Source: Candidatus Nomurabacteria bacterium (lineage in GTDB: Bacteria; Patescibacteriota; Minisyncoccia; Phycocordibacterales; UBA9973). From it: a stretch of 63,252 nt of DNA. Location: NCBI GenBank assembly GCA_037139835.1, contig JBAXFQ010000003.1:1-63252 (forward strand), given 5' to 3'. Shown in pieces: positions 1 through 61,173 of this stretch. Under the pieces are notes generated by a model. The model was not told the origin of the DNA and searched no databases. It saw nothing but the letters and a program-made list of their open reading frames with translations. The position numbers and the translations under genes are program-made. Position 1 is the first letter of the stretch. Every line of letters begins with the position of its first letter.

Positions 1-3000
1 TGTTGGTGTCGTCGTATCAACCTCAGGAGTAGTAGTTGCCGAAGACTGCGAAGTCGTAGTTGTCGTAGGCGATGCAGCCGGAGATACTGAGTCAGAAGAC
101 GAAGTGCTGATCGTAGTTCCAATTGAAGTTCCTCCTGTGAGAGAATTTATTATTGTATCAAGAATTCCCGAACCTGAACCCCCTGCACTTGCTGTCTGTG
201 TCGTAGGCGATGTAGCCGGAGACACTGAGTCAGTAGACGAAGTGTTGATAGTTGTTGCCGTAGTCTGAGAAGACGAAGGTACTGAACCAACAGGTGAAGT
301 ATTAGTTTGCTGTACTAGATTTGTCGGAGTAGAAGTAGGATCAATTACCAATCCTGTTATCACACTTTCAAATATTTTTGGATTCTTGACTGCAAGTGCA
401 ACCCATGAGAAGCGAACATCTTGAGGAGCAACTTTATTCAAAACTATAGTGAATCCTTTTTCATCTTTATCAGCAACTACAGACTTGATATCATTATCGA
501 AGAATGTCTTCGCATCAAATACAGCTGTCGTTCCATCTGCATTTTTTACTTTTTCGAATGATACTGTTGTATTCACTATCGGTGTAGCGATGTATGCATT
601 ATCGAAAGTCACATCAACTTTATTGGCACCTGCTTTCACTATTGCAAATCCAGCTGTATCACTATTGAACAGTGGAGGTACTGCAAACTCTGCTACATCT
701 TCAAACTTTACAGACTTAGCAAAGTCTACATTTGCATTGAAGAATGTGAGACCATTAAACGTCGACTCCCCTGCGAACTGGTGAGCGGATTCACTTTCAT
801 AATATCCTTGCTCTACGAATACCATCACCATATTCTGCCCTGAAGATGGAGTCCAATCTTCGAGGGCTTTACCTATTACAAATCCTGACCTTAGTGCTCT
901 TGTAGCCATACCTGGATCTATCTGTGAAGTTGTTAGATAATCCCCCGCTTTGATAGGAGAAGATGTTTGGGATATCTTTACAGGAACACGTCCGTTAAGA
1001 GCGACAGGCATAGGATTGTCAGTGTCTTTTATATTGTAACCAGTAGATGAGAAATCATTCTTGTTGTTTGATACGATACCTACGACATTTTGCTGATAAC
1101 CGTCTGTAGATTTTACCAATTTAGTTACATTTCCTTTTACTTTATTCCAATCTATATTGCCATCAGTACCTATATCATAAGTAGTTATTTTTTCTGTACC
1201 TGTAGCCACTATATCTCCGTATTCTAATCCACTTGTGACTGGGTACATTTCGGCATAGTCAGCAGCAGGTGCTCCACTACAATCACGAAGTTCATAAGCA
1301 GTTCCAGCTGTAGGTGCTGTACCGTTGGCTAGACTCGAACAGACAGCAGTAGTTGAAGCTGTTCCTGAAAGTCCTAGACTAGTGATTCCGGCATTGGTGA
1401 CCTTAAAGAGTGAGACATTGTTCTTCTGTAAGTCTATGAAGTTACCAGTGAAAGATCCAGATCCTGTGGCAAACTTCATGAGCAAACCTGTGCCTGTAAA
1501 TGTAGAAGTGCTATGGAAGAAGTTTGCGTAAGAAGTAGCAGAAGTTACAGATGTGGAATAAAGTCTCAATATATCTCCTTGTGTCGTTCCTGTACTTTCA
1601 CCATACAGAGCGGCAGGTACTGACACTCCTCCACCGAGACCTGAGATAACACCTTGAACTCCGAATGTTGCCCCAGAGGCACGGAGACCTGTATTTGTTC
1701 CTGCTGTATTACTTCCTCCATTTGCTGTGATATCAAGACCACGAACTGTGTTTGATAAAGATGTATTATCAACTACACGTACTAATTGTGCTACTGCAGT
1801 ATTGGCATTTGTCGTCGGACTATTTGTTACCACATAACGATCCCCCACTTGAGTACCACCGGCAGTTGGATTGAAAGTATATCCTCCGAGTATTCCAGCG
1901 ATAGCACTCGATGGTCCGTTCGCTGCAGTAGTACCTGTGACATAAAGTTTTGAAGAAGATGTTCCCTCTGAGGCTGCTCCGATATATACTCTATTATTTG
2001 TCGCATCTCCGACTATCAGATTTGTATCAACGGTTAACCCTGTTGACACATTGACTGAACCCGTAAAGTTCGCTGAACTTGAAATAGTTTGAGAATTAAT
2101 TAAACCTGAAGAAATAGTTCCTATATTTGTAAGATTTCCAGATGCATCAATTCTCACTGTTCCTGCTCCTGCACCTGTAGCTATACTTGTCACAGCATTA
2201 AGTGTTCCAGGTGCACGGAAGTCAGATGGTATAGAAAGTGTAACTGCTCCAGTAGAAGATGAAGCACTTATTTGATTTGCAGTTCCTGATATAGAAGAAA
2301 CTCCACTTGAAGATGTTAAGAATGTAGATGATAGAACCTTTTCAATTACACCAGTAGATGTATTTCTCGTCATGATGTCGTAACCACCAGCAGATGTTGT
2401 AGGTGCGGTAGTGAGGGTTAGAGTACTACCGATATTTGCTGTACCGTTTACGTCGAGTTTGTATGTCGGGTTGGTGGTGCCGATGCCGACGTTGCCATTA
2501 CTATCTATTTTTACTTTATCTACAGAACCTACTTGAAAGTTATAACCCGAACCAGAATTAAAATAATTTAAACCAGATTCTCTATTGTTGAAGTATGCAT
2601 TTCCACTAGTATCCATTGCTAAATCAAGACCATCGGTTCCTAATATTCCGACTGTGGAATTTGTAACCTTCAAATATGAAGTTGCAGCGGTTGCATTTAC
2701 TACTAAGTTTGCACTAGGATTCGTCGTCCCGATGCCGACGTTGCCGTTGCTTAATATTCTTATGCCCTCTTTTAAAATACCGTAATTACCCGCTGATGAT
2801 AATACTAAAGAAGCCTGTCCTGTAGAATTTTCAGTTATCGTAGATATTCTTCCAGTATTATAATATGGAGTCCCCGGTATTCCATTCCAGAAAGCAATAC
2901 CAGAACTATCGCCACTATTAACTCTGGTATTAAATATACTTAATAAATCTTCATTGGCTGAACCGGCTGCATTAGCCACCATCAGTTTCGCCCCCGGTGC

Positions 3001-6000
3001 CGTCGTCCCGATGCCGACGTTGCCGGTGTTGTCGATGCTTAATCGTTCAGTTGCACCGGTAAACACTCCTAATCTCGTTGCAGATGGTGCCTGTATATAA
3101 TAACCTGCGGGACCAAATTGGAACGAGTAACCCTGATTAAGCTTTATTTCTCCGCCGGTTGCAAGAATGTTGCCTGACACTTCAAGCTTTTGACTCGGAC
3201 TCGTCGTCCCGATGCCGACGTTGCCTGCATTTATATAACTGTTCCCAGTGTTTGCAAAAAGACGAACAGTTTTTACATTTGCTGAATTATAAAGGTTTAA
3301 CTCACCGTCCCAGTTATTTGATACTATTTCTCCCCTTGGATAAATACCGGCACCAGTATCAACCCAAAGACCAATGCCATCGGAACTACTATTACCTGCC
3401 GCCTGAACGACTAATTTTTTAGTTGGTCCCGTCGTCCCGATGCCGACGTTGCCGTTTGTTAATTGAACCATTTTTGCCGTAGTTCCACCGCCAGGCGTGA
3501 AATAAATAGGACCAGCAGAAGTATAAAAGTTCAAACCACCAGTACCACCAACACTTGTAAATACTGCTTGTCGTGCCAAAATATCTGTGCCACTTATTGC
3601 CCCAGTAGAACCTGTCATCAAAAACTGTCCCAAATCTCCAGTGTCGTTATTCCAAATAGCATTAGCATATCCACCAGCATTAGTGTTAGTAATTGACAGA
3701 CCCGAAACGCTAGAGTTTGCTTGAGTAGCGTTTGCCGACAATGTTAATTGACTTCCTGGTCCCGTCGTCCCGATGCCGACGTTGCCGTTTATTATTAAAC
3801 CATTTGCCGGAGCCGTTTGCCCTGATGCGTACCCAACACTGGCATTACCTACTACAGAAAGTTTTGTACCCGGCGAAGCATCACCGATGCCGACGTTGCC
3901 GGATGATTTTACAATTAACACTGGGTTCGTTTTATCATAAGCAGCGCTATTGCCTCGATACAAAGCCAATAAATTACCCGTGACAGAAGGACCATAGGTA
4001 AATCCTTGAATTACATCACCGGCGAAGGTGCCATCGTTAGGATAGAATCTACTCACATATCCAGTTCCAACCCCGGAATTAGTTTTAACATCTATTCCAG
4101 AACTTCCAGTTCCACTATTTGCATTATAAAAATAAGCTAATTTATCATTAATATCTCCGGTAACTTCAAGCTTCGCTCCCGGATTCGTCGTCCCGATGCC
4201 GACGTTGCCGTTTATTGCTAATTTCGCCGTCCCTGGGTCTGCATAACCAATTGCAACATTTCCACCTAATGGATTAATAGCAAGATTCCATCCAATTCCA
4301 GAGGTGCGGGATTGGATATAATTTGGATAAGGTGAAACTCCTGAACCACCCATCGAAATTTCCTGACCAGCATTATTAATTAATAGTCCAGAAGCAGCTC
4401 CAGTAACAAGAGATGGATTGTATGTATTACTATTATAAATTTCCAATTTACTTCCCGGTCCCGTCGTCCCGATGCCAATATTTCCATTATTCAATATTGT
4501 TAATCTTTCTGTATTAGAACTTGTTGTACGAAAATGTATAATGGCTGTTCCTTGAGCATCAAAATACATACCACTCTGTGGTGTTCTAAAAACCATATTC
4601 CCTGCATAATCGAGTTGGAACAATCCTGTTCCTCCAATTGTTTGAAATCCAATATTTGAACTTGTAGTCGCTCCTGTTCCAGTTACTTTTAAAATCCCAT
4701 TGTCACCATTAGAAGATGCAGTAGAAAGTTCCAGAGATGCACCCGGATTCGTCGTCCCGATGCCGACGTTGCCGTTTGGTAAAATTCTCATTGCTTCATT
4801 GTTTCCTGTTCCAAAAGCCAAAGGACCGGCGGAGTTTCCGCTGGAAGTTAGTGAGGATAATGTTGGCTCTGATGCTCCTGCCAAGTTAAATGCATTTTTT
4901 ATAAATAAACCTTGTGTAGTAGAACCTCTGAAAGCCGCAACTAATCCTGACGTATCTAACACATCTAATTTCACTGCTGGCGTCGTCGTGCCGATGCCGA
5001 CGTTGCCACCAACTAGAACATTAAATAATTTAGTACTTCCATTACTAACATCAAATATTCCTACTGGTGCAGCTGTTGCTGCTGCATTTGTAATATGAAG
5101 AGAACTAGTTATAAATGCCATTCTGTTTGCTGCCCCTCCAGCAGTTGCTGAGAATGCTACATTATCTGTTGTGGTATTACCAACTTGGAACCATTGAGTA
5201 TCTTGTGCATCTGACCAAGCAGTCGTCGATCTTACACCTCTGAAAACTCTATTTGTGGATTGATATAACATTATATCCCCTCCTGAGTTTCCAAGATTTC
5301 CAGATGAATTAATAAAAGCTTTTGCACTTCCATTCACTTGCCATTGTTGTAGGTCTGCAGTCTGGCCAGTGAATCCATTTGCTACTATAGGAGTTATGCC
5401 TATAGCAGAAGAATTTACTTGCAGTGGATATCCAGGAGTAGTAGTTCCAACACCAAGGTTACCATTTGTATCAATACGCATACGTTCTACAGGAGTAGAT
5501 CCATGAGCTGTTGCAAATCCTAAATATGAATATGTATCAGCTGAATCAATTCCAAAGCGAACTTGAGATCCGTTGTTTGTATTTCCTGAAGCATATTGAA
5601 CTCCGATTGGAACATAACTCCCCGGTACATTTTGTGCACTATAAATTCCTATTCCAGAACCACTTGTTCCGCTTACTGCCAATGTAAGTTTTTGAGTAAT
5701 ACTATTTAAATCTGAAGCAGTAGTATTTATTCCTACGCTTGTTCCATTATCAAATATCTGTGAATCACCAACGGTTGTCCCGGAGCCTGTAAATTTAGCT
5801 ACTTTATTTAGAGTCCCCGAAGGAGTAGCCATATAAGAAACATTCGAAGCAGCAGTAACCAAACCTTTTCCATTTACGGTGACATTATTAAATGTACCTA
5901 CATTCGAATTCACTGTTGCTAATGTTAATGCTCCACTTGCAACTATTCCTGCATCTCCGGTCATTGATACAAATGTAGGAACACCTGATCCATTTGCTAC

Positions 6001-9000
6001 TAGGAGTTGTCCTGTTGTTCCTGCTGCTGTAGCTAGTATAGAAGTAGTACTGTTACCATATAGAACTCCATTAGTTGTGAATGTTCCTACTCCTGTTCCT
6101 CCTCTTGATACAGCTGTGTACTGTTCTGATCCTAGAGTAGTAGCACTATTCCAATATGTATTGTATCCATTTGTTCCTGATAGTGCAGATGCAAATGAAG
6201 ATGATGAAACTTTTTCAATTACTCCTGTTCCTGTATTTCTTGTGACTATGTCGTAACCACCAGCAGAAGTTGTAGGTGCGGTGGTTAGGGTTAGGGTGCT
6301 ACCGATGTTTGCTGTACCGTTTACGTCGAGTTTGTATCCGGGTGAGGTGGTGCCGATGCCAACACTCCCTGTCGTTGTAAAAAAATTACTAGGCTTATTA
6401 TAAATAATACTACCATTATTTAAATTCCAATTATCACGGGCAGGAACTCCTCCTCCATAGACATAAACAGAACTAACTGTCATTGCTTCAAAACCCGGCA
6501 ACGCAGCTGCACCAGCGCTTATTCCAATAGCTTGCAAATAATATTGGTTGCCTTGAGATACTCGATGTTTCAAAGTGAAATACCATCGACTATTAGTTGA
6601 ATCCCAAAATGGACCAGTCATTTGTACTCTATCTGCAGTGTAGCCCTGATCAGCCTGAACTTCCCATTGGGAATCATATAAAGCACCAGCTGGATTCATA
6701 CCACCAGACCAACGAGGACTATATAAGCCAGTACCATTAATATAATTATATGTACCAGTAATATTAAATTGAATAGAACCCCAAAAATAAGTACCTGCGG
6801 GTAATATAATGTCAACTGCTTGTTGAGCTACACCATTCGGAAAATCAACGAATAATACTTTTTCAGAACGAATACTTCCGATACGTGTACCCTGAGTTCT
6901 AATATAACCAGAAGTATTAATATCCCCCGAAACATCCAACTTGTACACCGGAGCAGTCATACCAATTCCGACGTTGCCGTTTGGTAATATTCTCATTGCT
7001 TCTGATGTGTTAGGAGAGAAAATTAAACCTGTAGTTGAATACATATTTAATCCTGAACTTTCAACATTTAAAGCACCGGCTTGTGTTCCATTACCCATAG
7101 TAAGACCAGCTGAAGCTGTATAACCACTACTTCCTACAGAACCTATTTGTAACTTAGCATTAGGAATCGTCGTCCCGATTCCTACGTTTCCGTTTTGTAA
7201 GATTGTCATAGCTGTAGGGTAAGCACCTGCGTTATACATATCGAAATTGATACTGTGGCTGGTCGCCTGTCGCAAACCCCAATAGTTATTCGATCCCGTA
7301 AGCAGGTAGTGTGTTGCAACTGATGCGGACGACGTCAAATCTCCTACCGAGTCATTTTCAGAACCGCCCAATCTGACCGTACCTGCTACATCTAATTTGG
7401 TTCCAGGATTAGTTATACCTATCCCTAGATTGCCAGTAGCTTGCAATGTCATCAATTGATCATTTGAATAAAATCCCCAAGTTAAAGCATTACTTGTTGA
7501 ACCAGAACTTGCATATTTAAACCCCATATATCCAGATTGATTTGTTCCAGTACCTACTCCTAAGAAAGGAGAAATTAAAAGATGTCCCGTTGTTAGATTT
7601 GGGGCTTTAACAAAACTACCCCATACATAAGTACCATCATCTGTAGCAGTTACATCCAACACTGCTGGACCTCCACTTCCTGTACCCCCATTACCTGAAA
7701 TAGTTAAACGAGATCCAGGTGATGTAGCATTAATCCCCACATTACCATTCCCCAATATCGTCATCTTTTCTGTAGGAGTATTGTCAGCTACACCAGTCAC
7801 TCCTGCCGTCGAAGTAAAGAAATGCATTGCTGAAGTTCCTGTACCAGTACTGATTCCTGATTTAAAATTTAAATCCCCTCCTGCAAGATCAGCTGTTCCT
7901 GCTATTGATCCACCAGAAGAAAGTGTGAGACCTTGTCCGGCTGTAGCTGCAGTTGTGTTTCTTTCCATCCAGATAGTATGTGCAGTTGTGCCATCGAAAG
8001 ATAAAGCTTGAGTTGGTGATGATGTTCCGATACCAACTGCTCCACTGCCATTAATTGTCAAAACTCTACCACTTGTGCCGTTATTAAAATAAAATCCTCC
8101 ACCGCTAACATTATTCAACCACATTGGTCCATTTGAAGAATCTATACCTAGTCCCGCATCATTATTCGTTCCTCCATAATCTTGAATTTTTAATCTAAAA
8201 CCATTTTCTCCAGTTGGATCAGAATAAACAGATTTATTTGATAACATAGTTCCGTCAACTTGCAATGAATACCCAGGTACCGTCGTCCCTATTCCCACAT
8301 TCGTTCCATTATCAAAAATCTGAGAATCACCAATAGCTGAACCAGTAGATGTAAATTTCGCTATTTTATTTTGTGTACCTGTCCCTGTGACTGGATTTGT
8401 AAGAGCTGTTTGATATGTAGTTGTATCTACACTCAATGTTCCATCAGCGGAATTTGTTTTCAAGAATCCATTTGTTGTAAATTTTGAAAGCTTGATAGTA
8501 TCTAGTGCCGAGCCAATAAGTATCGTATCTGCAGTTGTATTATTCGTTCCGATATTTATCGTCTTGCCTCCTGTTCCTGTTCCGATATTTATTATACCTG
8601 TCGTTCCAGAGTCGAGAGTGAGAGCTCCTGTTGTGCCTGTTGTAATATTGAGTGCGGAAGCTGCATTTGAATTTATATTTACTACTGCTCCGTTGATAGT
8701 AGTGTTGGCTCCAACTCTACCGAGTGTCAAAGCATTTTGATTAACTGCTCCTATATTTAATGCGACAGCTGAAGGTGCATCAACATTTGGAGTATAGACA
8801 TATCCAGAAATAGTAAGTGCTCCTGTTGAAGGGATAAATGAAAGTTGAGCTGAAGAAGTTTTGATAGCCATTCCTCCAGAGTTAGTCGTAACCCAAGTCG
8901 GATATACAGATGTCGCAGTCGCCGCATCATTCGTAATATTTGAGGTTATAGAAGTTTGAGCAGTTTCAGAAATGACAGCTGCAGGTACTGTTCCCAACTT

Positions 9001-9384
9001 TTTTCTTGGAGTCATTTCTCCATCCCATCCTGGTGTTCCCGTCCCCCCGATATTTACACCCAAGTAAAGTGTCTGGTTGAAGTCTACTCCAGTCAGAGCA
9101 TTTATTTCTCCGAGCATAGCAGAGAAGAGTCCATTTGTGACTTGAACTTTATTTGTTGTTGTTCTCGTCTCTGTCCAAAGAGTAGTTCCTGCTGTTGGTG
9201 CATCGTAAAGTTTGAATTCCATATTGTAAGTTCCGTTCGCTACTGCTACCCCTGCTGAAGTCGTAAGCTTACCTTGATAGTTTATCTGCTTGTTGAAAAG
9301 AGCTTCTGCTTTTCCTACAAGTGGAGAGAAAGGAGCAAGAATCAAAGATAAGAAAATAAATGAAGAAGCCAAGATGTTCGCCAT
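1..9384 (-). CDS. giant secreted repeat surface protein, tail-fibre-like (at least 3,128 aa; C-terminal part continues beyond the left window edge)
   Basis: Not in the ORF track because no stop lies inside the window. ATG = complement of cat 9382-9384. I read plus-strand triplets in register 1 mod 3 over 1-960, 5041-5100 and the start region and found no TTA/CTA/TCA. The only other minus ORF listed here (1566-1772) is in a different frame. The N-terminus MANILASSFIFLSLILAPFSPLVGKAEA looks like a signal peptide. The body carries about 20 copies (by eye) of G-N-[VIL]-G-I-G-T-T-x-P. The visible C-terminal end (1-400) is Thr/Ser-rich. Confidence 0.85.
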   Translation of the reverse strand, partial: MANILASSFIFLSLILAPFSPLVGKAEALFNKQINYQGKLTTSAGVAVANGTYNMEFKLYDAPTAGTTLWTETRTTTNKVQVTNGLFSAMLGEINALTGVDFNQTLYLGVNIGGTGTPGWDGEMTPRKKLGTVPAAVISETAQTSITSNITNDAATATSVYPTWVTTNSGGMAIKTSSAQLSFIPSTGALTISGYVYTPNVDAPSAVALNIGAVNQNALTLGRVGANTTINGAVVNINSNAASALNITTGTTGALTLDSGTTGIINIGTGTGGKTINIGTNNTTADTILIGSALDTIKLSKFTTNGFLKTNSADGTLSVDTTTYQTALTNPVTGTGTQNKIAKFTSTGSAIGDSQIFDNGTNVGIGTTVPGYSLQVDGTMLSNKSVYSDPTGENGFRLKIQDYGGTNNDAGLGIDSSNGPMWLNNVSGGGFYFNNGTSGRVLTINGSGAVGIGTSSPTQALSFDGTTAHTIWMERNTTAATAGQGLTLSSGGSIAGTADLAGGDLNFKSGISTGTGTSAMHFFTSTAGVTGVADNTPTEKMTILGNGNVGINATSPGSRLTISGNGGTGSGGPAVLDVTATDDGTYVWGSFVKAPNLTTGHLLISPFLGVGTGTNQSGYMGFKYASSGSTSNALTWGFYSNDQLMTLQATGNLGIGITNPGTKLDVAGTVRLGGSENDSVGDLTSSASVATHYLLTGSNNYWGLRQATSHSINFDMYNAGAYPTAMTILQNGNVGIGTTIPNAKLQIGSVGSSGYTASAGLTMGNGTQAGALNVESSGLNMYSTTGLIFSPNTSEAMRILPNGNVGIGMTAPVYKLDVSGDINTSGYIRTQGTRIGSIRSEKVLFVDFPNGVAQQAVDIILPAGTYFWGSIQFNITGTYNYINGTGLYSPRWSGGMNPAGALYDSQWEVQADQGYTADRVQMTGPFWDSTNSRWYFTLKHRVSQGNQYYLQAIGISAGAAALPGFEAMTVSSVYVYGGGVPARDNWNLNNGSIIYNKPSNFFTTTGSVGIGTTSPGYKLDVNGTANIGSTLTLTTAPTTSAGGYDIVTRNTGTGVIEKVSSSSFASALSGTNGYNTYWNSATTLGSEQYTAVSRGGTGVGTFTTNGVLYGNSTTSILATAAGTTGQLLVANGSGVPTFVSMTGDAGIVASGALTLATVNSNVGTFNNVTVNGKGLVTAASNVSYMATPSGTLNKVAKFTGSGTTVGDSQIFDNGTSVGINTTASDLNSITQKLTLAVSGTSGSGIGIYSAQNVPGSYVPIGVQYASGNTNNGSQVRFGIDSADTYSYLGFATAHGSTPVERMRIDTNGNLGVGTTTPGYPLQVNSSAIGITPIVANGFTGQTADLQQWQVNGSAKAFINSSGNLGNSGGDIMLYQSTNRVFRGVRSTTAWSDAQDTQWFQVGNTTTDNVAFSATAGGAANRMAFITSSLHITNAAATAAPVGIFDVSNGSTKLFNVLVGGNVGIGTTTPAVKLDVLDTSGLVAAFRGSTTQGLFIKNAFNLAGASEPTLSSLTSSGNSAGPLAFGTGNNEAMRILPNGNVGIGTTNPGASLELSTASSNGDNGILKVTGTGATTSSNIGFQTIGGTGLFQLDYAGNMVFRTPQSGMYFDAQGTAIIHFRTTSSNTERLTILNNGNIGIGTTGPGSKLEIYNSNTYNPSLVTGAASGLLINNAGQEISMGGSGVSPYPNYIQSRTSGIGWNLAINPLGGNVAIGYADPGTAKLAINGNVGIGTTNPGAKLEVTGDINDKLAYFYNANSGTGSSGIDVKTNSGVGTGYVSRFYPNDGTFAGDVIQGFTYGPSVTGNLLALYRGNSAAYDKTNPVLIVKSSGNVGIGDASPGTKLSVVGNASVGYASGQTAPANGLIINGNVGIGTTGPGSQLTLSANATQANSSVSGLSITNTNAGGYANAIWNNDTGDLGQFLMTGSTGAISGTDILARQAVFTSVGGTGGLNFYTSAGPIYFTPGGGTTAKMVQLTNGNVGIGTTGPTKKLVVQAAGNSSSDGIGLWVDTGAGIYPRGEIVSNNWDGELNLYNSANVKTVRLFANTGNSYINAGNVGIGTTSPSQKLEVSGNILATGGEIKLNQGYSFQFGPAGYYIQAPSATRLGVFTGATERLSIDNTGNVGIGTTAPGAKLMVANAAGSANEDLLSIFNTRVNSGDSSGIAFWNGIPGTPYYNTGRISTITENSTGQASLVLSSAGNYGILKEGIRILSNGNVGIGTTNPSANLVVNATAATSYLKVTNSTVGILGTDGLDLAMDTSGNAYFNNRESGLNYFNSGSGYNFQVGSVDKVKIDSNGNVGIGTTNPTYKLDVNGTANIGSTLTLTTAPTTSAGGYDIMTRNTSTGVIEKVLSSTFLTSSSGVSSISGTANQISASSSTGAVTLSIPSDFRAPGTLNAVTSIATGAGAGTVRIDASGNLTNIGTISSGLINSQTISSSANFTGSVNVSTGLTVDTNLIVGDATNNRVYIGAASEGTSSSKLYVTGTTAANGPSSAIAGILGGYTFNPTAGGTQVGDRYVVTNSPTTNANTAVAQLVRVVDNTSLSNTVRGLDITANGGSNTAGTNTGLRASGATFGVQGVISGLGGGVSVPAALYGESTGTTQGDILRLYSTSVTSATSYANFFHSTSTFTGTGLLMKFATGSGSFTGNFIDLQKNNVSLFKVTNAGITSLGLSGTASTTAVCSSLANGTAPTAGTAYELRDCSGAPAADYAEMYPVTSGLEYGDIVATGTEKITTYDIGTDGNIDWNKVKGNVTKLVKSTDGYQQNVVGIVSNNKNDFSSTGYNIKDTDNPMPVALNGRVPVKISQTSSPIKAGDYLTTSQIDPGMATRALRSGFVIGKALEDWTPSSGQNMVMVFVEQGYYESESAHQFAGESTFNGLTFFNANVDFAKSVKFEDVAEFAVPPLFNSDTAGFAIVKAGANKVDVTFDNAYIATPIVNTTVSFEKVKNADGTTAVFDAKTFFDNDIKSVVADKDEKGFTIVLNKVAPQDVRFSWVALAVKNPKIFESVITGLVIDPTSTPTNLVQQTNTSPVGSVPSSSQTTATTINTSSTDSVSPATSPTTQTASAGGSGSGILDTIINSLTGGTSIGTTISTSSSDSVSPAASPTTTTTSQSSATTTPEVDTTTPT
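2341..2490 (-). repeat. internal duplication inside the giant gene, copy 1 (module junction ...KLDVNGTANIGSTLTLTTAPTTSAGGYDI.TRNT.TGVIEK)
   Basis: Aligns with 6214-6363 at an in-frame offset of 3,873 nt. Over the central ~110 nt roughly nine in ten positions are identical by eye. Confidence 0.8.
2482..5007 (-). repeat. array of 10 perfect copies of the GC-rich 15-mer GATGCCGACGTTGCC (plus strand), encoding G-N-V-G-I on the minus strand; 7 copies extend to the 24-mer CGTCGTCCCGATGCCGACGTTGCC
   Basis: Copies start at 2482, 2731, 3010, 3211, 3439, 3772, 3886, 4195, 4759 and 4993. All spacings are multiples of 3 (249, 279, 201, 228, 333, 114, 309, 564, 234). Degenerate copies occur near 4466, 5450, 6355, 6965, 7175, 7420, 7730, 8030 and 8290. 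Confidence 0.9.
6214..6363 (-). repeat. internal duplication inside the giant gene, copy 2
   Basis: See copy 1 (2341-2490). The shared string is atgtcgtaaccaccagcaga...gctgtaccgtttacgtcgagtttgtat. Confidence 0.8.
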
Positions 9385-9475
9385 CTCTTTGGTCTTTCTA
9401 TTTATTTTTATAAATTTTATTTTCATTTTTTCTTTCTTCTTTCTTCTTTCTTACCTAATCACTAACTACTATTCA

Positions 9476-9841
9476 CTAATCACTAATCCTTATACTTCCC
9501 CCATCCGACTTCACAGCGGACTGTGTTTCAACAGTAGGGGTCGGCTTACTTTTGGTAAATGATGACAACAGCAAAAATCCACCAATAAAAATAATAATGG
9601 TGGCTATGATTATGTTCTTTGTACGAGTAGGCGAAAAGAAATCTTTTATTGCGAATTCTTGGTGACGGACCTTCTTCTTGAAAATATAGTTATTGACCTC
9701 TTCTTCAGTAGTGAACCAAGCTCTTCCTTTCTTCATTCCTTTTATCTCTCCCTTACGTACCAAAAATCCAAGGTAGTCTTGTGAGTACCCTGATAGCTGT
9801 GCCGCTTGGTTTAAAGAAATGACTTTTTTAAATGATTCCAT
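9476..9841 (-). CDS. HTH (excisionase/MerR-like HTH_17-type) DNA-binding protein with a C-terminal TM helix
   Basis: LNQAAQLSGYSQDYLGFLVRKGEIKGMKKGRAWFTTEEEVNNYI resembles the HTH_17 pattern. A hydrophobic stretch IIIATIIIFIGGFLLLSSF follows. The gene lies immediately upstream of the giant gene on the same strand. Confidence 0.7.
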   Translation of the reverse strand: MESFKKVISLNQAAQLSGYSQDYLGFLVRKGEIKGMKKGRAWFTTEEEVNNYIFKKKVRHQEFAIKDFFSPTRTKNIIIATIIIFIGGFLLLSSFTKSKPTPTVETQSAVKSDGGSIRISD

Positions 9842-10116
9842 CCCGTTAGAGATAGGAAGCGCCTAATCTATTTTTTAGATAACGCTTACCCATCCCTGTT
9901 TTTAAATATAACTCTCTCGACATTGCTTTCTCTTTTAACAAACACGCCTCGTAATAAATAACAAAGAACGGTCCTCTACCTTTAGTATAAATAGACTTAC
10001 CACTATTATGTTCAGAAAGGCGCTTCCGTAGATCATTTGTAAATCCGGTGTATAGCTTGCCATCTTTCTTACTTTTTAATACGTAAGTGTAGTAATACAT
10101 AACTATCTCTAACGGG
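9842..10116 (-). mobile_element. candidate compact selfish element: GIY-YIG ORF bracketed exactly by perfect 14-nt terminal inverted repeats CCCGTTAGAGATAG / CTATCTCTAACGGG
   Basis: The left arm 9842-9855 overlaps the ORF stop. The right arm 10103-10116 ends 2 nt before the ATG at 10100. Related termini (CCCGTTAGA / TCTAACGGG) occur at 32517-32634 and 21530-21567. Confidence 0.45.
9846..10100 (-). CDS. small GIY-YIG nuclease superfamily protein (about 84 aa)
   Basis: MYYYTYVLKSKKDGKLYTGFTNDLRKRLSEHNSG matches the GIY-x-YIG ... R ... H-N core pattern. The ORF-track start at 10121 is a GTG, so I prefer the ATG at 10100. Confidence 0.8.
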   Translation of the reverse strand: MYYYTYVLKSKKDGKLYTGFTNDLRKRLSEHNSGKSIYTKGRGPFFVIYYEACLLKEKAMSRELYLKTGMGKRYLKNRLGASYL

Positions 10117-10154
10117 ACCACTCAATTTCTATTTAGCCTTAATTTATAATGTTA

Positions 10155-10264
10155 TCTCGGATAGACGATTATAATTATCTTAGTAATATCGGACTGACGA
10201 GAATATTTTTTTAAATATAACGTCTATCCGATAAAATTATTTTTAAAATCTCGTTTATCCGATA
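10155..10264. promoter_or_regulatory. four-site operator-like array (consensus TATCGGATAGACG): two direct sites followed by two inverted sites
   Basis: Sites: 10155-10167 tctcggatagacg; 10187-10199 tatcggactgacg; 10221-10233 cgtctatccgata (perfect reverse complement of the consensus); 10252-10264 cgtttatccgata. Spacing is 32 and 31 nt. The array sits 40-160 nt upstream of the GIY-YIG/HTH/giant-gene string. Confidence 0.45.
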
Positions 10265-19538: not shown

Positions 19539-20159
19539 TTATATACCAGTTATGAGATGAAAGGCTATCAATATAATAGGTGAAACTTTAGTCCAAAGAA
19601 AAATTATAAAAAACAAAAGTAAGAACATTCCCCACTTTTCTAAAAAGTTTTCTATATATCTATATTTATAAGGTAGGAACGAAAACATAATTTTAGAACC
19701 ATCAAGAGGTGGAATAGGTATTAAATTAAATAAAGCGAGAACTAAATTTAAAATAACTATAATAGAAGTAATCTTAAAGAATGGAGCTGACATTGGAATT
19801 CCTAACAAAGGTGCAAATCGGATAAGTAAACCGAAGAAAATCACCAAAACAAGATTGGCCAATATACCAGCAATAGCTACGAGGAAAGTTCCTTTCTTCT
19901 CATCTCTTAAATTTGCAGGATTATAAGGAACAGGCTTTGCCCATCCGATAACAAAACCAGCACTCATCAATACAAGAAGCAATGGAAGTATAACTGAACC
20001 AAAAGGATCAAGATGCTTTAGAGGATTTAGTGTGAGACGTCCACTATTGCGAGCTGTATTGTCGCCGAGAAGATAGGCTGAGTATCCATGAGCTACTTCA
20101 TGAACGACTACAGACATTATCAATACAATTATATAGAATATTCCATCAATCATTTGCAT
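19539..20159 (-). CDS. site-2 protease family (peptidase M50) membrane metalloprotease
   Basis: HEVAHG zinc motif in TM1, NLIPIPPLDGSK motif; polytopic. Confidence 0.85.
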   Translation of the reverse strand: MQMIDGIFYIIVLIMSVVVHEVAHGYSAYLLGDNTARNSGRLTLNPLKHLDPFGSVILPLLLVLMSAGFVIGWAKPVPYNPANLRDEKKGTFLVAIAGILANLVLVIFFGLLIRFAPLLGIPMSAPFFKITSIIVILNLVLALFNLIPIPPLDGSKIMFSFLPYKYRYIENFLEKWGMFLLLFFIIFLWTKVSPIILIAFHLITGI

Positions 20160-20636: not shown

Positions 20637-21507
20637 ATTTTGTATATACAAGTTTTATTCCATCTGACTCAAAAATAATATTGCCTAAGTCTGAAGTTTT
20701 TAAAAATGGAATATGAAGTGAGGTTAGTCTATCTAGGATATCTTTATGCGGATGACCATACTTATTCCCTTTATCTACTGAGATGATAGCAACTCTCGGA
20801 TTCACCTTCTCAAGCCAAGAAACACCCGATGAAGTATGTGACCCATGATGTCCAAGCTTCAGGACATCAGATTTTAAAGTACTATCTTTTTCATTCCAGC
20901 CAATCAGATTCTCAGTATAAGTTGTTGCATCCCCTGTGAACATAAATGAGTCTTTACCATACGTTAGCTTCCCTACTATCGAGCCATCATTACTATCAAA
21001 ATTCGACACATCTCTATCAGGAAAAATAATATCGAAATAAATATTTTTCTTATTATCAAGTATGATATGCATTCCTCTCTTTGCGATTATTTTCTTTATT
21101 TTATTTTTTACAATTTTGTTTTCTAAACTTTCATATACTTTCGAATCAGATGTTGCCCCATTTTCTAATATACTTCCCACTTTATAATTATCTATCAGAA
21201 GTGGAAACCCTCCGATATGATCCATATCTGGATGCGTAGCCACTATCATATCTATCGAGCGATCAGCAAAAGGCATAACCTTCGACAAACTAGATAAAAG
21301 TTTAGCATCTGGCCCTCCGTCTATAAGCATTTGCTTGCCATTAGGGGCTTCTATATAGATAGCATCCCCTTGCCCAACATCTAGAAATACAACTTTTAAA
21401 TATGGGCTGTTCTTATGTTGAAAAACGAAAAACCAGATACCAGCCGTCAAAATAACCAATAAAATCAATAGAATATATGGTAGATATTTTCTTCTTCTTT
21501 CCATCAC
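20635..21507 (-). CDS. membrane-anchored metallo-beta-lactamase-fold protein equivalent to the ComEC/Rec2 C-terminal domain
   Basis: N-terminal TM helix. VVFLDVGQGDAIYIE, HPDMDHIGG, GDA, LKLGHHGS motifs as in the ComEC MBL domain. Confidence 0.8.
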   Translation of the reverse strand: MMERRRKYLPYILLILLVILTAGIWFFVFQHKNSPYLKVVFLDVGQGDAIYIEAPNGKQMLIDGGPDAKLLSSLSKVMPFADRSIDMIVATHPDMDHIGGFPLLIDNYKVGSILENGATSDSKVYESLENKIVKNKIKKIIAKRGMHIILDNKKNIYFDIIFPDRDVSNFDSNDGSIVGKLTYGKDSFMFTGDATTYTENLIGWNEKDSTLKSDVLKLGHHGSHTSSGVSWLEKVNPRVAIISVDKGNKYGHPHKDILDRLTSLHIPFLKTSDLGNIIFESDGIKLVYTK

Positions 21508-21529
21508 AGTTAGATATTATAAATAATTT

Positions 21530-21567
21530 GTGTTCCGTTTAAGAATAATGCATATCTAACGGGACAC
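21530..21567. repeat. solo imperfect hairpin carrying the TCTAACGGG terminus motif
   Basis: GTGTTCCGTTTAAGA-ataatgcata-TCTAACGGGACAC, in the divergent spacer between the MBL gene and the SOD-like gene. Confidence 0.5.
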
Positions 21568-21608: not shown

Positions 21609-22217
21609 ATGGAAACATTTACACCGAAAACATTTGATATACCAAAATTAACAGGTATAAGCGAGAAAGCAATAGAAGAGCATCTAAAATTATATAAAGC
21701 TTACGTAGCTAATTCAAACTTGGTTTTAAATAAAATAAAAGAATACGAGAAAGATTTAGTTGCCAATGCTTATATTCTAAGCGAGCTTCATCGCCGTTTC
21801 GCTTTTGAATTCGGAGGCGTTCGTAATCACGAATATTATTTTACATCTCTTTCAAGTGGATCAAAATCACTTCCGGCTGATTCTAAATTAAAAGTAGAAA
21901 TAGAGAAAAGTGGTATTACTTTTGAAGTATGGCTAGCAAACTTCAAAGCATTAGCTATGACTCGCGGTATCGGATGGGCAATGCTTTACTATGACAAAGA
22001 AACCAATAGTCTTCTAACACAGTGGGTAGATGAGCAACACTTAGGTCATCTAGTTAGTGCTTCTCCTATCCTCGCTTTAGATATGTGGGAGCATTCATAT
22101 CTCTTCGATTATATTCCATCTGAAAAGAAAAATTATATAGAAGCCTTTTTTGCAAACTTGAACTGGGAAGTAATAGAAAGTAATTACGAAAATCAGGTTC
22201 TAGTTTCTAGTAATTAG
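21609..22217 (+). CDS. Fe/Mn superoxide dismutase family protein (divergent N-terminal motif)
   Basis: GGVRNHEYYF (compare GGH.NH..FW) and LDMWEHSYLFDY (compare D.WEHAYY). Confidence 0.75.
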   Translation: METFTPKTFDIPKLTGISEKAIEEHLKLYKAYVANSNLVLNKIKEYEKDLVANAYILSELHRRFAFEFGGVRNHEYYFTSLSSGSKSLPADSKLKVEIEKSGITFEVWLANFKALAMTRGIGWAMLYYDKETNSLLTQWVDEQHLGHLVSASPILALDMWEHSYLFDYIPSEKKNYIEAFFANLNWEVIESNYENQVLVSSN

Positions 22218-31301: not shown

Positions 31302-32516
31302 TTATTTTATATTATCCATAACTGAATACATGGGTTTGATCATGGCAATAGCAAAGAATCCGACGGCTACTCCTATAAATATCATTAATACTGGTTCTAT
31401 TATAGTCGAAAGATTTTTAGTTTTATTGTCTATTTCATTTTCATAAAAAGCGGCTATATCTATAAGCATCTGAGACAGTTTTCCAGTTTCTTCTCCCACT
31501 TCTATCATTTCTCCTACCATTATAGGATAAAGATCCGTATGCTCTTTAAAAGAGATAGATAGAACGATTCCTTTTTCTATTGAATTTATCGAATTATGAA
31601 TCAATTCTTTATAGTGAACATTTTGTAAAACTTCTTCCGTTATACTTAAAGCTTTAGACAGGTCTACTCCTGATGATAGCAGTGAAGATAAAGTCCTAGC
31701 AGTACGTGCTGTATTCATCTCCTTTATCAAAGTTCCTAATATTGGTAGCTTCAAAATAATTAAATCAAAATATCTTCTCGTGATTGAGAACTTAGATATC
31801 AAAATACCTATAGCAATTAAAGCTCCTATAAATAATACAAAAATTGGAAAATGCTGACTTAAAGTATCAGATATAAATATAATAAATTGAGTTGAAGCTG
31901 GTAGTGGCACTCCTATATCAACAAAAGTCTTAGTGAGTGTCGGCACTACATATATCATCATTAATACTCCAATAGCAAAAATAGCTATGATGATAACACT
32001 TGGGTATATCATCGCTCCTTTTATTTTCTTATTTAAATCATAAGTTTTTTTAAGGGTGACACCTATTTCCTTTAGAGTATTTGGTAAGCCTCCTGACTCT
32101 TCTCCCGAATGAACCATCGAAATAAATACTCCAGAAAATACTTTTGGGAATTTTTTCATACCAGTCGATAGAGTGTCCCCTTTGTCTATTCCATCTATAA
32201 GACTCTTCAAAATACTTTTAAAATATTTATTTGTAGTTTGCTTCTCTAAAACTGATAAAGCTCTAGTCAACGATAGCCCTGCTGAAAGCATTCCACTTAG
32301 ATTATTTGTAAACATTATTTTTTCAGATAAAGACACTCTATTAAATATTTTTATATCCATAGAGAAACCAGTTTCTTTTACTCCTAACTCTTTTATAGAC
32401 AGAGGAGTACCCCCTCTTTCTCTTATCTCTCTAGCTAGGGAGAATTTATCTAAAGACTCAGCAAGTCCTTCTACTAATTTACCTTCTTTATTTTGTTCTT
32501 TAAATTTAAATTTCAT
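31302..32516 (-). CDS. pilC: type IV pilus / type II secretion platform protein (GspF/PilC family)
   Basis: 404 aa with two repeats of the GspF domain and three TM segments; adjacent to pilB. Confidence 0.9.
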   Translation of the reverse strand: MKFKFKEQNKEGKLVEGLAESLDKFSLAREIRERGGTPLSIKELGVKETGFSMDIKIFNRVSLSEKIMFTNNLSGMLSAGLSLTRALSVLEKQTTNKYFKSILKSLIDGIDKGDTLSTGMKKFPKVFSGVFISMVHSGEESGGLPNTLKEIGVTLKKTYDLNKKIKGAMIYPSVIIIAIFAIGVLMMIYVVPTLTKTFVDIGVPLPASTQFIIFISDTLSQHFPIFVLFIGALIAIGILISKFSITRRYFDLIILKLPILGTLIKEMNTARTARTLSSLLSSGVDLSKALSITEEVLQNVHYKELIHNSINSIEKGIVLSISFKEHTDLYPIMVGEMIEVGEETGKLSQMLIDIAAFYENEIDNKTKNLSTIIEPVLMIFIGVAVGFFAIAMIKPMYSVMDNIK

Positions 32517-32634
32517 CCCGTTAGAAGCAGGTCGCGGTCGTTATGTTTTAATAACTAATACAACTTACTATTTTTTATTTAAAATGATTATTATTTATTT
32601 ACTTTTTTATCCCGTGACCGCGGCTTCTAACGGG
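32517..32634. mobile_element. ORF-less inverted-repeat (MITE-like) element sharing its termini with the GIY-YIG unit
   Basis: Left arm CCCGTTAGAAGC[aggt]CGCGGTC (32517-32539). Right arm GACCGCGGCTTCTAACGGG (32616-32634). This gives 19 potential bp with a 4-nt bulge around a 76-nt AT-rich interior. It abuts the pilC ATG. Confidence 0.45.
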
Positions 32635-32644
32635 ATTCATTCCT

Positions 32645-38370: not shown

Positions 38371-38535
38371 ATAAAAGCCCCTCAGACTAGGGCCGGAGGG
38401 GCTTTTAACCAAATATAAAAATATATTCTCCTGCTCGGGAAACACCTTTATATTAAGACCGGACTTGTCCCATTTAGGGCATTACCGTTGCGGCACAGTA
38501 GAGGAATCAAACCTCATTTCCAAATATAATGGTTT
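38371..38535 (-). promoter_or_regulatory. cobalamin (B12) riboswitch with a terminator expression platform
   Basis: Minus strand GGAAATGAGGTTTGATTCCTCTACTGTGCCGCAACGGTAATGCC...GGGACAAGTCCGGTC resembles the conserved core (GGGAA..GGTG.AA.TCC...CCGC.AC.GTAA) and the B12 box (AGTC.GG..C). It is followed by GCCCCTC-cggccctagtct-GAGGGGCTTTTAT. Confidence 0.7.
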
Positions 38536-38552
38536 AAATTTTAAAAATACAA

Positions 38553-61056: not shown

Positions 61057-61104
61057 CACCCCAAAATAAAAACAGCCCCTTTCGGGGGTTTTTATTTTGG
61101 GGTG
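61057..61104. terminator. long palindrome/terminator overlapping the tRNA-His acceptor 3' end
   Basis: CACCCCAAAATAAAAAC-agCCCC-tttc-GGGGg-GTTTTTATTTTGGGGTG. The right arm includes the CCA and discriminator positions of the tRNA. Confidence 0.7.
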
Positions 61105-61173
61105 CCTACTGGGATTTGAACCCAGACTGAGAGTTCCACAAACTCTAGTGCTAACCATTACACTATAGGCACC
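61098..61173 (-). tRNA. tRNA-His (anticodon GTG) with encoded G-1 and encoded CCA
   Basis: Minus strand G-GTGCCTA-TA-GTGT-AATGGTTA-GCAC-T-AGAGT-TTGTGGA-ACTCT-CAGT-CTGGG-TTCAAAT-CCCAG-TAGGCAC-C-CCA. The cloverleaf was folded by hand. G-1:C73 is the His identity feature. Confidence 0.9.

Follow-up and report, generated by a model that had tools for sequence, protein, structure and literature searches.

The 84-codon GIY-YIG gene that is framed by inverted repeats in the 63,252-nt stretch of Candidatus Nomurabacteria DNA analyzed here (the window) probably belongs, as one copy, to a widespread family of very small mobile elements, a reading in which the coupling to the host gene and the nuclease-driven mobility are inferred. 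Insertion polymorphism, terminal repeats, flanking duplications, the distribution of the family, purifying selection on the nuclease, covarying helices and the geometry of stop and start codons were observed directly. We class the unit as a transposable element bounded by repeats; its only protein is without precedent for such an element, and its location at start codons is unusual.

The GIY-YIG unit and related elements in the window

The unit is encoded on the minus strand, where the left arm (10116-10103) is followed by TT, the open reading frame (ORF), the right arm (9855-9842) with the stop codon inside it, and the ATG of a gene for an HTH protein (Table 1). A preliminary description of this DNA had reported perfect 14-nt inverted repeats around an 84-codon GIY-YIG frame, with one arm containing the stop and the other ending 2 nt before the ATG, and each of these points was confirmed. 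The frame runs from the ATG at 10100 to the TAA at 9848-9846 (84 codons) and is also open from the old GTG of the host gene (10121-10119), which gives 91 codons. Only ~20 nt of the 275-nt unit are non-coding. The HTH ATG (9841-9839) stands directly after ...TCTAACGGG without a spacer, as had been described. The same junction, TCTAACGGG followed by ATG, is present at the start of pilC together with an ORF-less element (32517-32634), which was likewise borne out and measures 118 nt.

Exact matches to CCCGTTAGAGATAG in the window were restricted to 9842-9855 (+) and 10103-10116 (-). The 9-mer core of the repeat, CCCGTTAGA, occurred five times against 0.20 expected; none of 100 shuffles gave five copies, and all five fell within three elements. 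A chance origin of the repeat was ruled out by these core-motif statistics and by the lack of other start-codon-ending repeats in the window. The description of the arms as GC-rich in an AT-rich genome also held (50% G+C in the arms, 34% in the window).

A third hairpin had been placed at 21530-21567. An element is present there, but its limits had been drawn incorrectly; the real element is a degenerate ORF-less copy of 59 nt at 21505-21563 with the arms CACAGTTAGATAT and ATATCTAACGGG, and a 57-nt orthologue lies in a syntenic related fragment (L008:1622-1678). The 118-nt element at the pilC start gave an RNA fold with z=-5.7, and the second helix of this ORF-less family covaries (CGCGGTC/GACCGCG versus CGCGATC/GATCGCG).

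Table 1 Features of the GIY-YIG unit, the ORF-less elements and the empty target sites in the window.
Feature	Coordinates	Strand	Remarks
Complete GIY-YIG-bearing element	9842..10116	-	275-nt core; clean indel relative to HTH loci without the unit
Element including paired terminal bases	9841-10117		T at 10117; A at 9841, the A of the HTH ATG
Left (5') terminal inverted repeat, CCCGTTAGAGATAG	10103..10116	-	5' strand of helix P1; conserved in 64 units
Right (3') terminal inverted repeat, CTATCTCTAACGGG	9842..9855	-	3' strand of P1; holds the stop TAA (9848-9846)
84-codon stand-alone GIY-YIG (UPF0213/Slx1-like) nuclease gene	9846..10100	-	Pfam, PDB, AlphaFold/Foldseek, pN/pS
P2 5' strand, GGAAGCGCCT, R-K-R-L codons	10018..10027	-	Pairs with 9855-9864
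P2 3' strand, AGGCGCTTCC, G-A-S codons	9855..9864	-	Covariation and RNAalifold
Upstream host-start copy GTGG, left of the element	10118..10121	-	Downstream twin (A)TGG at 9841-9838
Host gene, 121-aa HTH protein	9476..9841	-	ATG = last base of the element plus duplicated TG
ORF-less 118-nt element between pilB stop and pilC start	32517..32634	-	P1 of 12 bp plus a 7-bp helix (CGCGGTC/GACCGCG)
Duplicated target ATGAA, upstream copy	32636..32640	-	Downstream copy 32512-32516 = pilC start
Degenerate ORF-less 59-nt element	21505..21563	-	Adjoins the ATG (21504-21502) of a metallo-beta-lactamase-fold gene
Empty target ATGGA, superoxide dismutase gene start	21609..21613	+	118-nt ORF-less element here in L008
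Empty target ATGCA, M50 peptidase gene start	20155..20159	-	GIY-YIG unit here in L008

Distribution of the family and polymorphism at target sites

Homologs of the nuclease formed 1286 protein clusters in the protein collection, and the best 120 of these were mostly 80-95% identical and exactly 84 aa long. When one genome per species was scanned, at least 558 loci were confirmed, with two or three copies in several genomes. Copies were present in Patescibacteria and in contigs labelled Nitrospirota, Omnitrophota, Planctomycetota, Desulfobacteraceae and Schekmanbacteria. Eighty loci were fetched and 3-10 kb around each copy, that is, genome fragments only, was examined; the census covered these ~700 kb and the window. 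It contained 88 distinct elements, 69 with a GIY-YIG gene (271-285 nt) and 19 without an ORF (45-125 nt). In nearly all 80 fetched loci the gene lay between a left end Y-CCCGTTAGAG(AT) and a right end (AT)CTCTAACGGG-R, and inverted ends of 12-14 bp were conserved among the 88 elements. None of the elements with these ends exceeded 450 nt in the ~700 kb of loci and the window, fragments that do not exclude a separate transposase elsewhere.

Forms with and without the gene both occur with CCCGTTAGAG ends. A variant type of end, CCCGTACGA, was carried by a GIY-bearing element in L065 and by ORF-less elements in L053, L110, L120 and L167. One locus (L076) holds a GIY unit and two short elements with identical 14- and 18-nt termini, and the interior of these short elements had no recognizable derivation from the resident unit. 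Arrays of short copies were seen in a Nitrospirota locus (L078). The proposal that the GIY-bearing and ORF-less forms are an autonomous/non-autonomous pair with the nuclease as sole cargo is supported by the shared termini and by the lack of any other ORF that fits, with self-movement remaining an inference. Copies inside one genome were 86-92% identical, and there was thus no sign of a very recent burst. A phage origin was considered and rejected, as scans of viral contigs gave no true copy: the four pattern matches lay in contigs of 47-62% G+C and were without extended arms or duplications.

The bases that flank the element at -1 and +1 were complementary in 61 of 64 units (T/A in 50, C/G in 10). 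Direct duplications of at least 4 bp were found at 43 of the 88 elements, compared to ~9 expected from shuffled flank pairing, and a test of four-base duplications gave a mean of 2.54 matches versus 1.91 +/- 0.07. The duplications were 3-6 bp long, most commonly ATGAA and ATGGA, with a modal form of 5 bp, ATGNA; in about half of the copies the duplication was missing or decayed. In copies outside Patescibacteria the first base of the upstream copy varied, and the base after the right end was always G. From comparison of these flanks, the best model of insertion would be an element with ends Y...R and a duplicated T-N-N-A, which is equivalent to ATGNA with a flanking purine.

The relatives of the window are Patescibacteria labelled Nomurabacteria or Paceibacteria. 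Clean insertion polymorphism was identified at four orthologous sites, the starts of the HTH, pilC (at the pilB-pilC junction), superoxide dismutase (SOD) and M50 peptidase genes. HTH loci without the unit were found in L088/L089 and L090-L094, with HTH proteins that were 75-88% identical, and the alignment of the HTH loci has a single 275-nt indel at the start codon within an otherwise conserved promoter region. The empty site of the closest relative (L089) reads ...TTTA GTGGAATCATTT, and the filled site of the window reads ...TTGA GTGG[T CCCG...CGGG A]TGGAATCATTT, the host base being G in the empty relative and A in the filled window site. Judged from these relatives that lack it, the 275-nt unit is an insertion, a mobile element.

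At the pilC start, L095 and about ten other loci lacked an element; the pilB-pilC junction, the identity of whose two genes was confirmed, was TAA-N-ATGAAATTT in the closest relative (pilC 90% identical) and in about ten others. The same 118-nt ORF-less element occupies this site in the window, L127 and L128, and other ORF-less elements, with ends that are variant yet complementary, occupy it in L110, L120/L123 and L116. All filled pilB-pilC sites are flanked by ATGAAT on one side and ATGAAA on the other. Conversely, L008 carries a 118-nt ORF-less element at the SOD start and a GIY unit at the M50 peptidase start, both of which are empty in the window. The checks suggested by the preliminary description thus gave empty sites at the HTH and pilC starts, extra copies in many genomes with several per genome, and short target-site duplications. 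The findings that would have refuted that description were not obtained: the unit is multi-copy with polymorphic sites rather than single-copy and syntenic, and its core motif is not at chance frequency.

Start-codon geometry, conserved helices and the nuclease

An ATG directly followed the right end in 49 of 69 GIY units, and an ORF of at least 60 aa followed 46 of the 69. Among 64 units, the nuclease stop was a TAA 4 nt upstream of the host ATG or GTG in 35, a TGA overlapping the host ATG (ATGA) in 14, and a stop built from target bases in 5. The stop-start spacing in 49 of 64 units, either 4 nt or an overlap, fits translational coupling. Host genes included secA, ftsH, pgk, rsmE, 6-phosphogluconate dehydrogenase, a Na/H exchanger and type IV secretion genes, as well as a topoisomerase-like gene that was assigned from its N-terminal sequence only. 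A PrgI-like host gene (MQFKVPQF) carries the unit in five genomes. Expression of host genes such as secA, ftsH and pgk must survive the insertion.

The upstream start is still ATG in 25 cases, and in 6 of these it shares the frame of the nuclease; in the remainder it begins a short ORF whose end lies ~25 nt inside the nuclease gene. In ORF-less copies a short leader ORF ends ~70 nt upstream of the host ATG. Outside Patescibacteria the elements lie mostly away from gene starts, and the apparent targeting of start codons may for this reason reflect the target motif plus selection rather than the mechanism of insertion. Two further ideas were rejected. The idea that open promoter complexes or leaderless starts are targeted was not supported, as a TATAAT-like box, scored 4-8 nt upstream of the ATG, was present at 10 of 30 element starts versus 22% of all ORF starts, which is no enrichment. 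Translational bypass of the T4 gene 60 or yeast byps type was dismissed because the upstream copy is not followed by a stop codon and the frames are not constant.

An alignment of 64 units supported two helices, P1, formed by the terminal repeat, and P2, in which GGAAGCGCCT (the R-K-R-L/F codons) pairs with AGGCGCTTCC in the tail codons. P1 was 99% paired, with compensatory changes present. For P1 and P2 together, 98.1% of cells were paired, with changes on both sides at 9 pairs and in 81 cells; none of 500 shuffles matched these figures, and pairing in slid controls was at most 49%. Compensatory changes occurred at five P2 pairs, among them 112:285 (GC 45/AU 14), 115:282 (CG 54/UA 7), 116:281 (CG 36/UA 26) and 118:279 (UA 10/CG 9). 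RNAalifold, run independently, returned only P1 and P2. The non-Watson-Crick exceptions in the helices were ten G-U and six A-C, which do not tell RNA from single-stranded DNA.

Synonymous divergence was 0.60 in the gene core, 0.29 in codons 24-28 (the P2 5' strand) and 0.11 in the last eight codons, and the pN/pS of the core was 0.17, a value of purifying selection. The low core pN/pS and the low synonymous divergence at the helix codons indicated that the protein and both helices are under selection. Two C-terminal classes of the protein were found, ...NRLGASYL, with the stop inside TCTCTAACGGG, and ...KRFLSLTG, with a TGA that overlaps the next ATG. The GASYL and KRFLSLTG tails represent identical right-repeat nucleotides read in two frames, and because the two classes read it differently, the right end is conserved as nucleotides and not as protein.

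Rfam gave no match above threshold at the unit. A known RNA family or a group I intron was discarded on this basis, with no ribozyme core and only ~20 of 275 nt non-coding. Likeness to an integron attC site (GTTAGAG / CTCTAAC resembling GTTRRRY / RYYYAAC) was also considered and set aside, since the motif order in the element is the reverse of that in attC.

The HMM classification that had been proposed for the protein gave a Pfam GIY-YIG match with E=1.9e-16. Sequence matches in the PDB were two UPF0213 proteins, 1zg2 (E=5.7e-11) and 1ywl (E=1.2e-5). The AlphaFold model of the 84-aa protein had a pLDDT of 90.5, and Foldseek placed 1zg2 first, followed by entries for the Slx1 nuclease domain, including a 5'-flap complex, at TM 0.61-0.69; the catalytic domain of I-TevI was matched at E ~0.3 only. 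Tyr4/6, Tyr17, Arg25/27, His31, Asn32 and Glu63 were invariant among 28 sequences and, by analogy, would be catalytic. The 84 aa amount to one domain with no accessory domain. The NCBIfam model for group I intron endonucleases scored 19.9 against a cut-off of 56, and a PHROG 'homing endonuclease' profile matched with E=9e-6. No recognized transposase (DDE, HUH, serine or tyrosine recombinase) was detected in the unit by Pfam, NCBIfam or PDB comparison, and the GIY-YIG gene was the sole ORF. A defence system was ruled out, as PADLOC gave no match.

Proposed mechanism, alternatives and significance

In the mechanism that we propose, the putatively autonomous form would be the ~275-nt unit, with 12-14-bp inverted repeats set tightly around one 84-aa GIY-YIG gene, and the non-autonomous forms (45-125 nt) would keep the GIY ends without the gene. 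P1 and P2 would form a covarying stacked stem of ~24 bp in single-stranded nucleic acid, and this stem may be the substrate or recognition feature of a structure-specific nuclease during mobility; the action of the P1/P2 structure, as DNA or as RNA, is an inferred part of the model. The nuclease would make a staggered cut in the target, host repair would complete the insertion, and a few target bases, T-N-N-A (ATGNA with a flanking purine), would be duplicated. That the nuclease catalyzes mobility is likewise inferred, without enzymology or a transposition intermediate. A hydrolytic GIY-YIG nuclease alone cannot join DNA, and the joining step is left unexplained by such an enzyme on its own.

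In Patescibacteria, where the element lies exactly at the start codons of genes, its last base, A, and the duplicated TG would rebuild the host ATG. The host promoter and the old start codon, now to the left of the element, would drive translation into it; the nuclease ORF would be translated, and termination beside the rebuilt ATG would allow re-initiation on the host gene. Such re-initiation would explain why insertions are tolerated before secA, ftsH, pgk and the topoisomerase-like gene. That the coupling operates is inferred from the geometry only, and the model leaves re-initiation behind ORF-less copies unexplained.

It is quite possible, and too uncertain to be called probable, that the family represents a class of transposable element not recognized before in prokaryotes, and perhaps the smallest that is autonomous (~275 bp), in which a Slx1-like nuclease recognizes the folded P1/P2 ends and cuts T-N-N-A, the ATG is rebuilt and translation of the host gene is coupled. 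Full-text literature searches, with the end sequences included, returned no description of such an element, in keeping with the initial impression that the arrangement was undescribed.

DDE transposons are also marked by terminal inverted repeats with a short duplication, and a GIY-YIG nuclease is unable to ligate. The elements could be ordinary MITEs that are moved by a conventional transposase encoded elsewhere, with the GIY-YIG gene as a passenger in one MITE lineage, and the examination of only 3-10 kb around each copy leaves room for this. We consider it unlikely, as the ~700 kb held no element above 450 nt with these ends, and gene and ends are fused, the right repeat serving as the last codons of the nuclease in two frames. 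The gene is also under purifying selection, keeps its association with the ends across phyla and is present in a copy with the variant ends (L065), and the variable length of the duplication is atypical of DDE enzymes. A free-standing homing endonuclease gene that spreads only from one allele to its homologue, through repair of double-strand breaks, with the repeats and duplicated ATG as expression signals, would agree with the classical homing-endonuclease fold of GIY-YIG proteins and the PHROG match, and with repeated occupation of the pilC start and of the PrgI-like gene in its five genomes. This is improbable in our judgement: 84 aa leave no room for a DNA-binding domain, the fold is closer to Slx1 than to I-TevI, and the targets are dozens of unrelated genes with only ~ATGNA in common. 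Furthermore, ORF-less copies have identical ends, the flanking duplications change with the host sequence, and one pilC site has received independent variant elements.

The preliminary description had itself raised a long-range mRNA stem regulating the small ORF as the alternative. In a fuller form of this reading, the repeat is merely a local stem that controls translation of the small ORF or the HTH gene, in a unit that is immobile. The structure is real, in that an RNA stem is predicted (z=-3.0 and -5.7) and the helices covary, but it is a property of a mobile element and not a local regulator of one gene. The clean presence and absence at four orthologous sites, and copies at unrelated genes in several phyla, make an immobile regulatory stem scarcely tenable.

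Among known systems, pairs of insertion sequences and MITEs (e.g. the Correia elements of Neisseria) share with the family terminal inverted repeats, a short target duplication, many copies, ORF-less derivatives with the ends of the coding copy, co-transcription with neighboring genes and a stem in the transcript. The family differs in its sole protein, an 84-aa GIY-YIG nuclease rather than an enzyme of the DDE, HUH, serine or tyrosine type, in its exact insertion at start codons, where stop and start are placed as for translational coupling, and in a second covarying helix inside the coding region. To our knowledge, the ~275-nt coding copy is far smaller than any known autonomous insertion sequence. 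The REP/REPIN-RAYT systems also place a gene of a nuclease family between inverted short palindromic repeats that occur alone in many copies. RAYTs, however, are HUH Y1 transposases similar to those of IS200/IS605, are usually single-copy and are not mobile as a unit, and REPs have neither a target duplication nor an association with start codons; the gene in our family is GIY-YIG. Free-standing GIY-YIG homing endonucleases (T4 Seg and the I-TevI family) have the same domain in a selfish insertion between or at host genes. Homing enzymes possess long DNA-binding domains, recognize long sites at one cognate locus and are without inverted repeats, duplications or ORF-less derivatives, whereas the element has no DNA-binding domain, many targets and all three of these features.

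The closest sequence match and fold, also a minimal domain, is that of the UPF0213/Slx1 proteins (YhbQ, YazA and BH0048). The literature treats these as housekeeping proteins or proteins of unknown function, and none was found described as cargo of a repeat-bounded mobile element. Prokaryotic Slx1-like proteins represent the fold in its minimal form without accessory domains (PMC1564403), and YhbQ and YazA have been assigned to the Slx1 family (PMC7017083). In rRNA genes of the candidate phyla radiation (CPR), all GIY-YIG ORFs were found in insertions that are unlike both group I and group II introns and were noted as not homing-like (PMC11270868). Those insertions share the bacterial group with the elements described here and differ in lying in rRNA genes and not at start codons. 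The two may be the same element. Transfer from Patescibacteria to other bacteria has also been listed for GIY-YIG genes (PMC12455944).

Should the nuclease move the element, the few enzymes that drive DNA transposition in prokaryotes would include a GIY-YIG nuclease acting alone, and the lower size limit for an autonomous element would be reset. The short conserved ends and small nuclease could also offer an experimental tool. The element may account for the GIY-YIG insertions in CPR rRNA genes that are not introns and have had no explanation. In CPR genomes, hundreds of 'GIY-YIG nuclease family' genes, and the start calls adjacent to them, are probably mis-read, and if the family is indeed a new transposable-element class, a large part of the Patescibacteria genes annotated as 'UPF0213 / GIY-YIG nuclease family protein' would be selfish elements and not repair genes. 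A rebuilt ATG with hand-on of the ribosome would let such a parasite precede essential genes (secA, ftsH and pgk) in very compact genomes.

Orientation and tandem arrangement of the elements

The ORF-less elements whose second helix is CGCGGTC/GACCGCG (the CGCGGTC family) occupied six independent sites, in the window and in loci fetched from related or other genomes (L-numbers). Orientation relative to the host gene was identical at all of these sites despite the symmetric ends of the element, a hint that some constraint specific to the strand or to the transcript is at work. Tandem or nested element copies were found from position 3259 of L026 onward and in L086, L087, L074 and L078, and in these the right end of one element was followed by a few target bases and then by the left end of the next. 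In L078, which is labelled Nitrospirota, ORF-less copies of 95-107 nt were arranged as an array. The tandem and nested copies fit an insertion that regenerates its own target.

Locations of element copies and of other features
Feature	Location	Strand	Remark
CGCGGTC-family copies	window 32517-32634	-
	L127; L128; L008
	L031:3687-3804
	L055:3266-3384
	L063:3286-3400
	L021:6140-6246
Four operator-like boxes, TATCGGATA(A/G)ACG	window 10155-10264	2 per strand	just upstream of element and HTH gene
Giant ORF	window 1-9475	-	directly 3' of HTH gene
	L001:10675-20100		directly 3' of HTH gene
AdoCbl (B12) riboswitch	window 38417-38548	-	64 bits, above gathering score
tRNA gene	window 61101-61172	-

Surroundings of the HTH gene and the pilB-pilC junction

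The operator-like boxes upstream of the HTH gene probably reflect autoregulation by the HTH protein. The four boxes are still kept in relatives without the element. The giant ORF behind the HTH gene exceeds 3142 aa in a related contig (L001) and is truncated by the start of the window. A PemK-family toxin gene comes after the HTH gene in L088/L089, the closest relative without the unit, and is absent from that position in the window.

At the pilB-pilC junction, other relatives carry small, unrelated G+C-rich hairpins (L096/L098, L121, L149, L111, L133, L107 and L100), often positioned right behind an additional ATG. The hairpins could represent further families of miniature elements that use this hot spot, or footprints left there. 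In one distant relative (L147), the pilB-pilC spacer holds a run of CTCTACC tandem repeats.

Gene starts and type IV secretion hosts

Across L008-L087 and the window, 22% of ORF starts had a TATAAT-like box 4-8 nt before their ATG, compared to 5% of all ATG trinucleotides, a difference that points to many leaderless genes in these genomes. The unit was found repeatedly at the start codon of type IV secretion genes (L022, L031, L035, L037 and L040; L020 and L021), with hosts that encode a PrgI-like protein (in five genomes), a VirD4-like coupling protein and a TraG-like ATPase. The unit may spread horizontally by way of its residence in type IV secretion genes.
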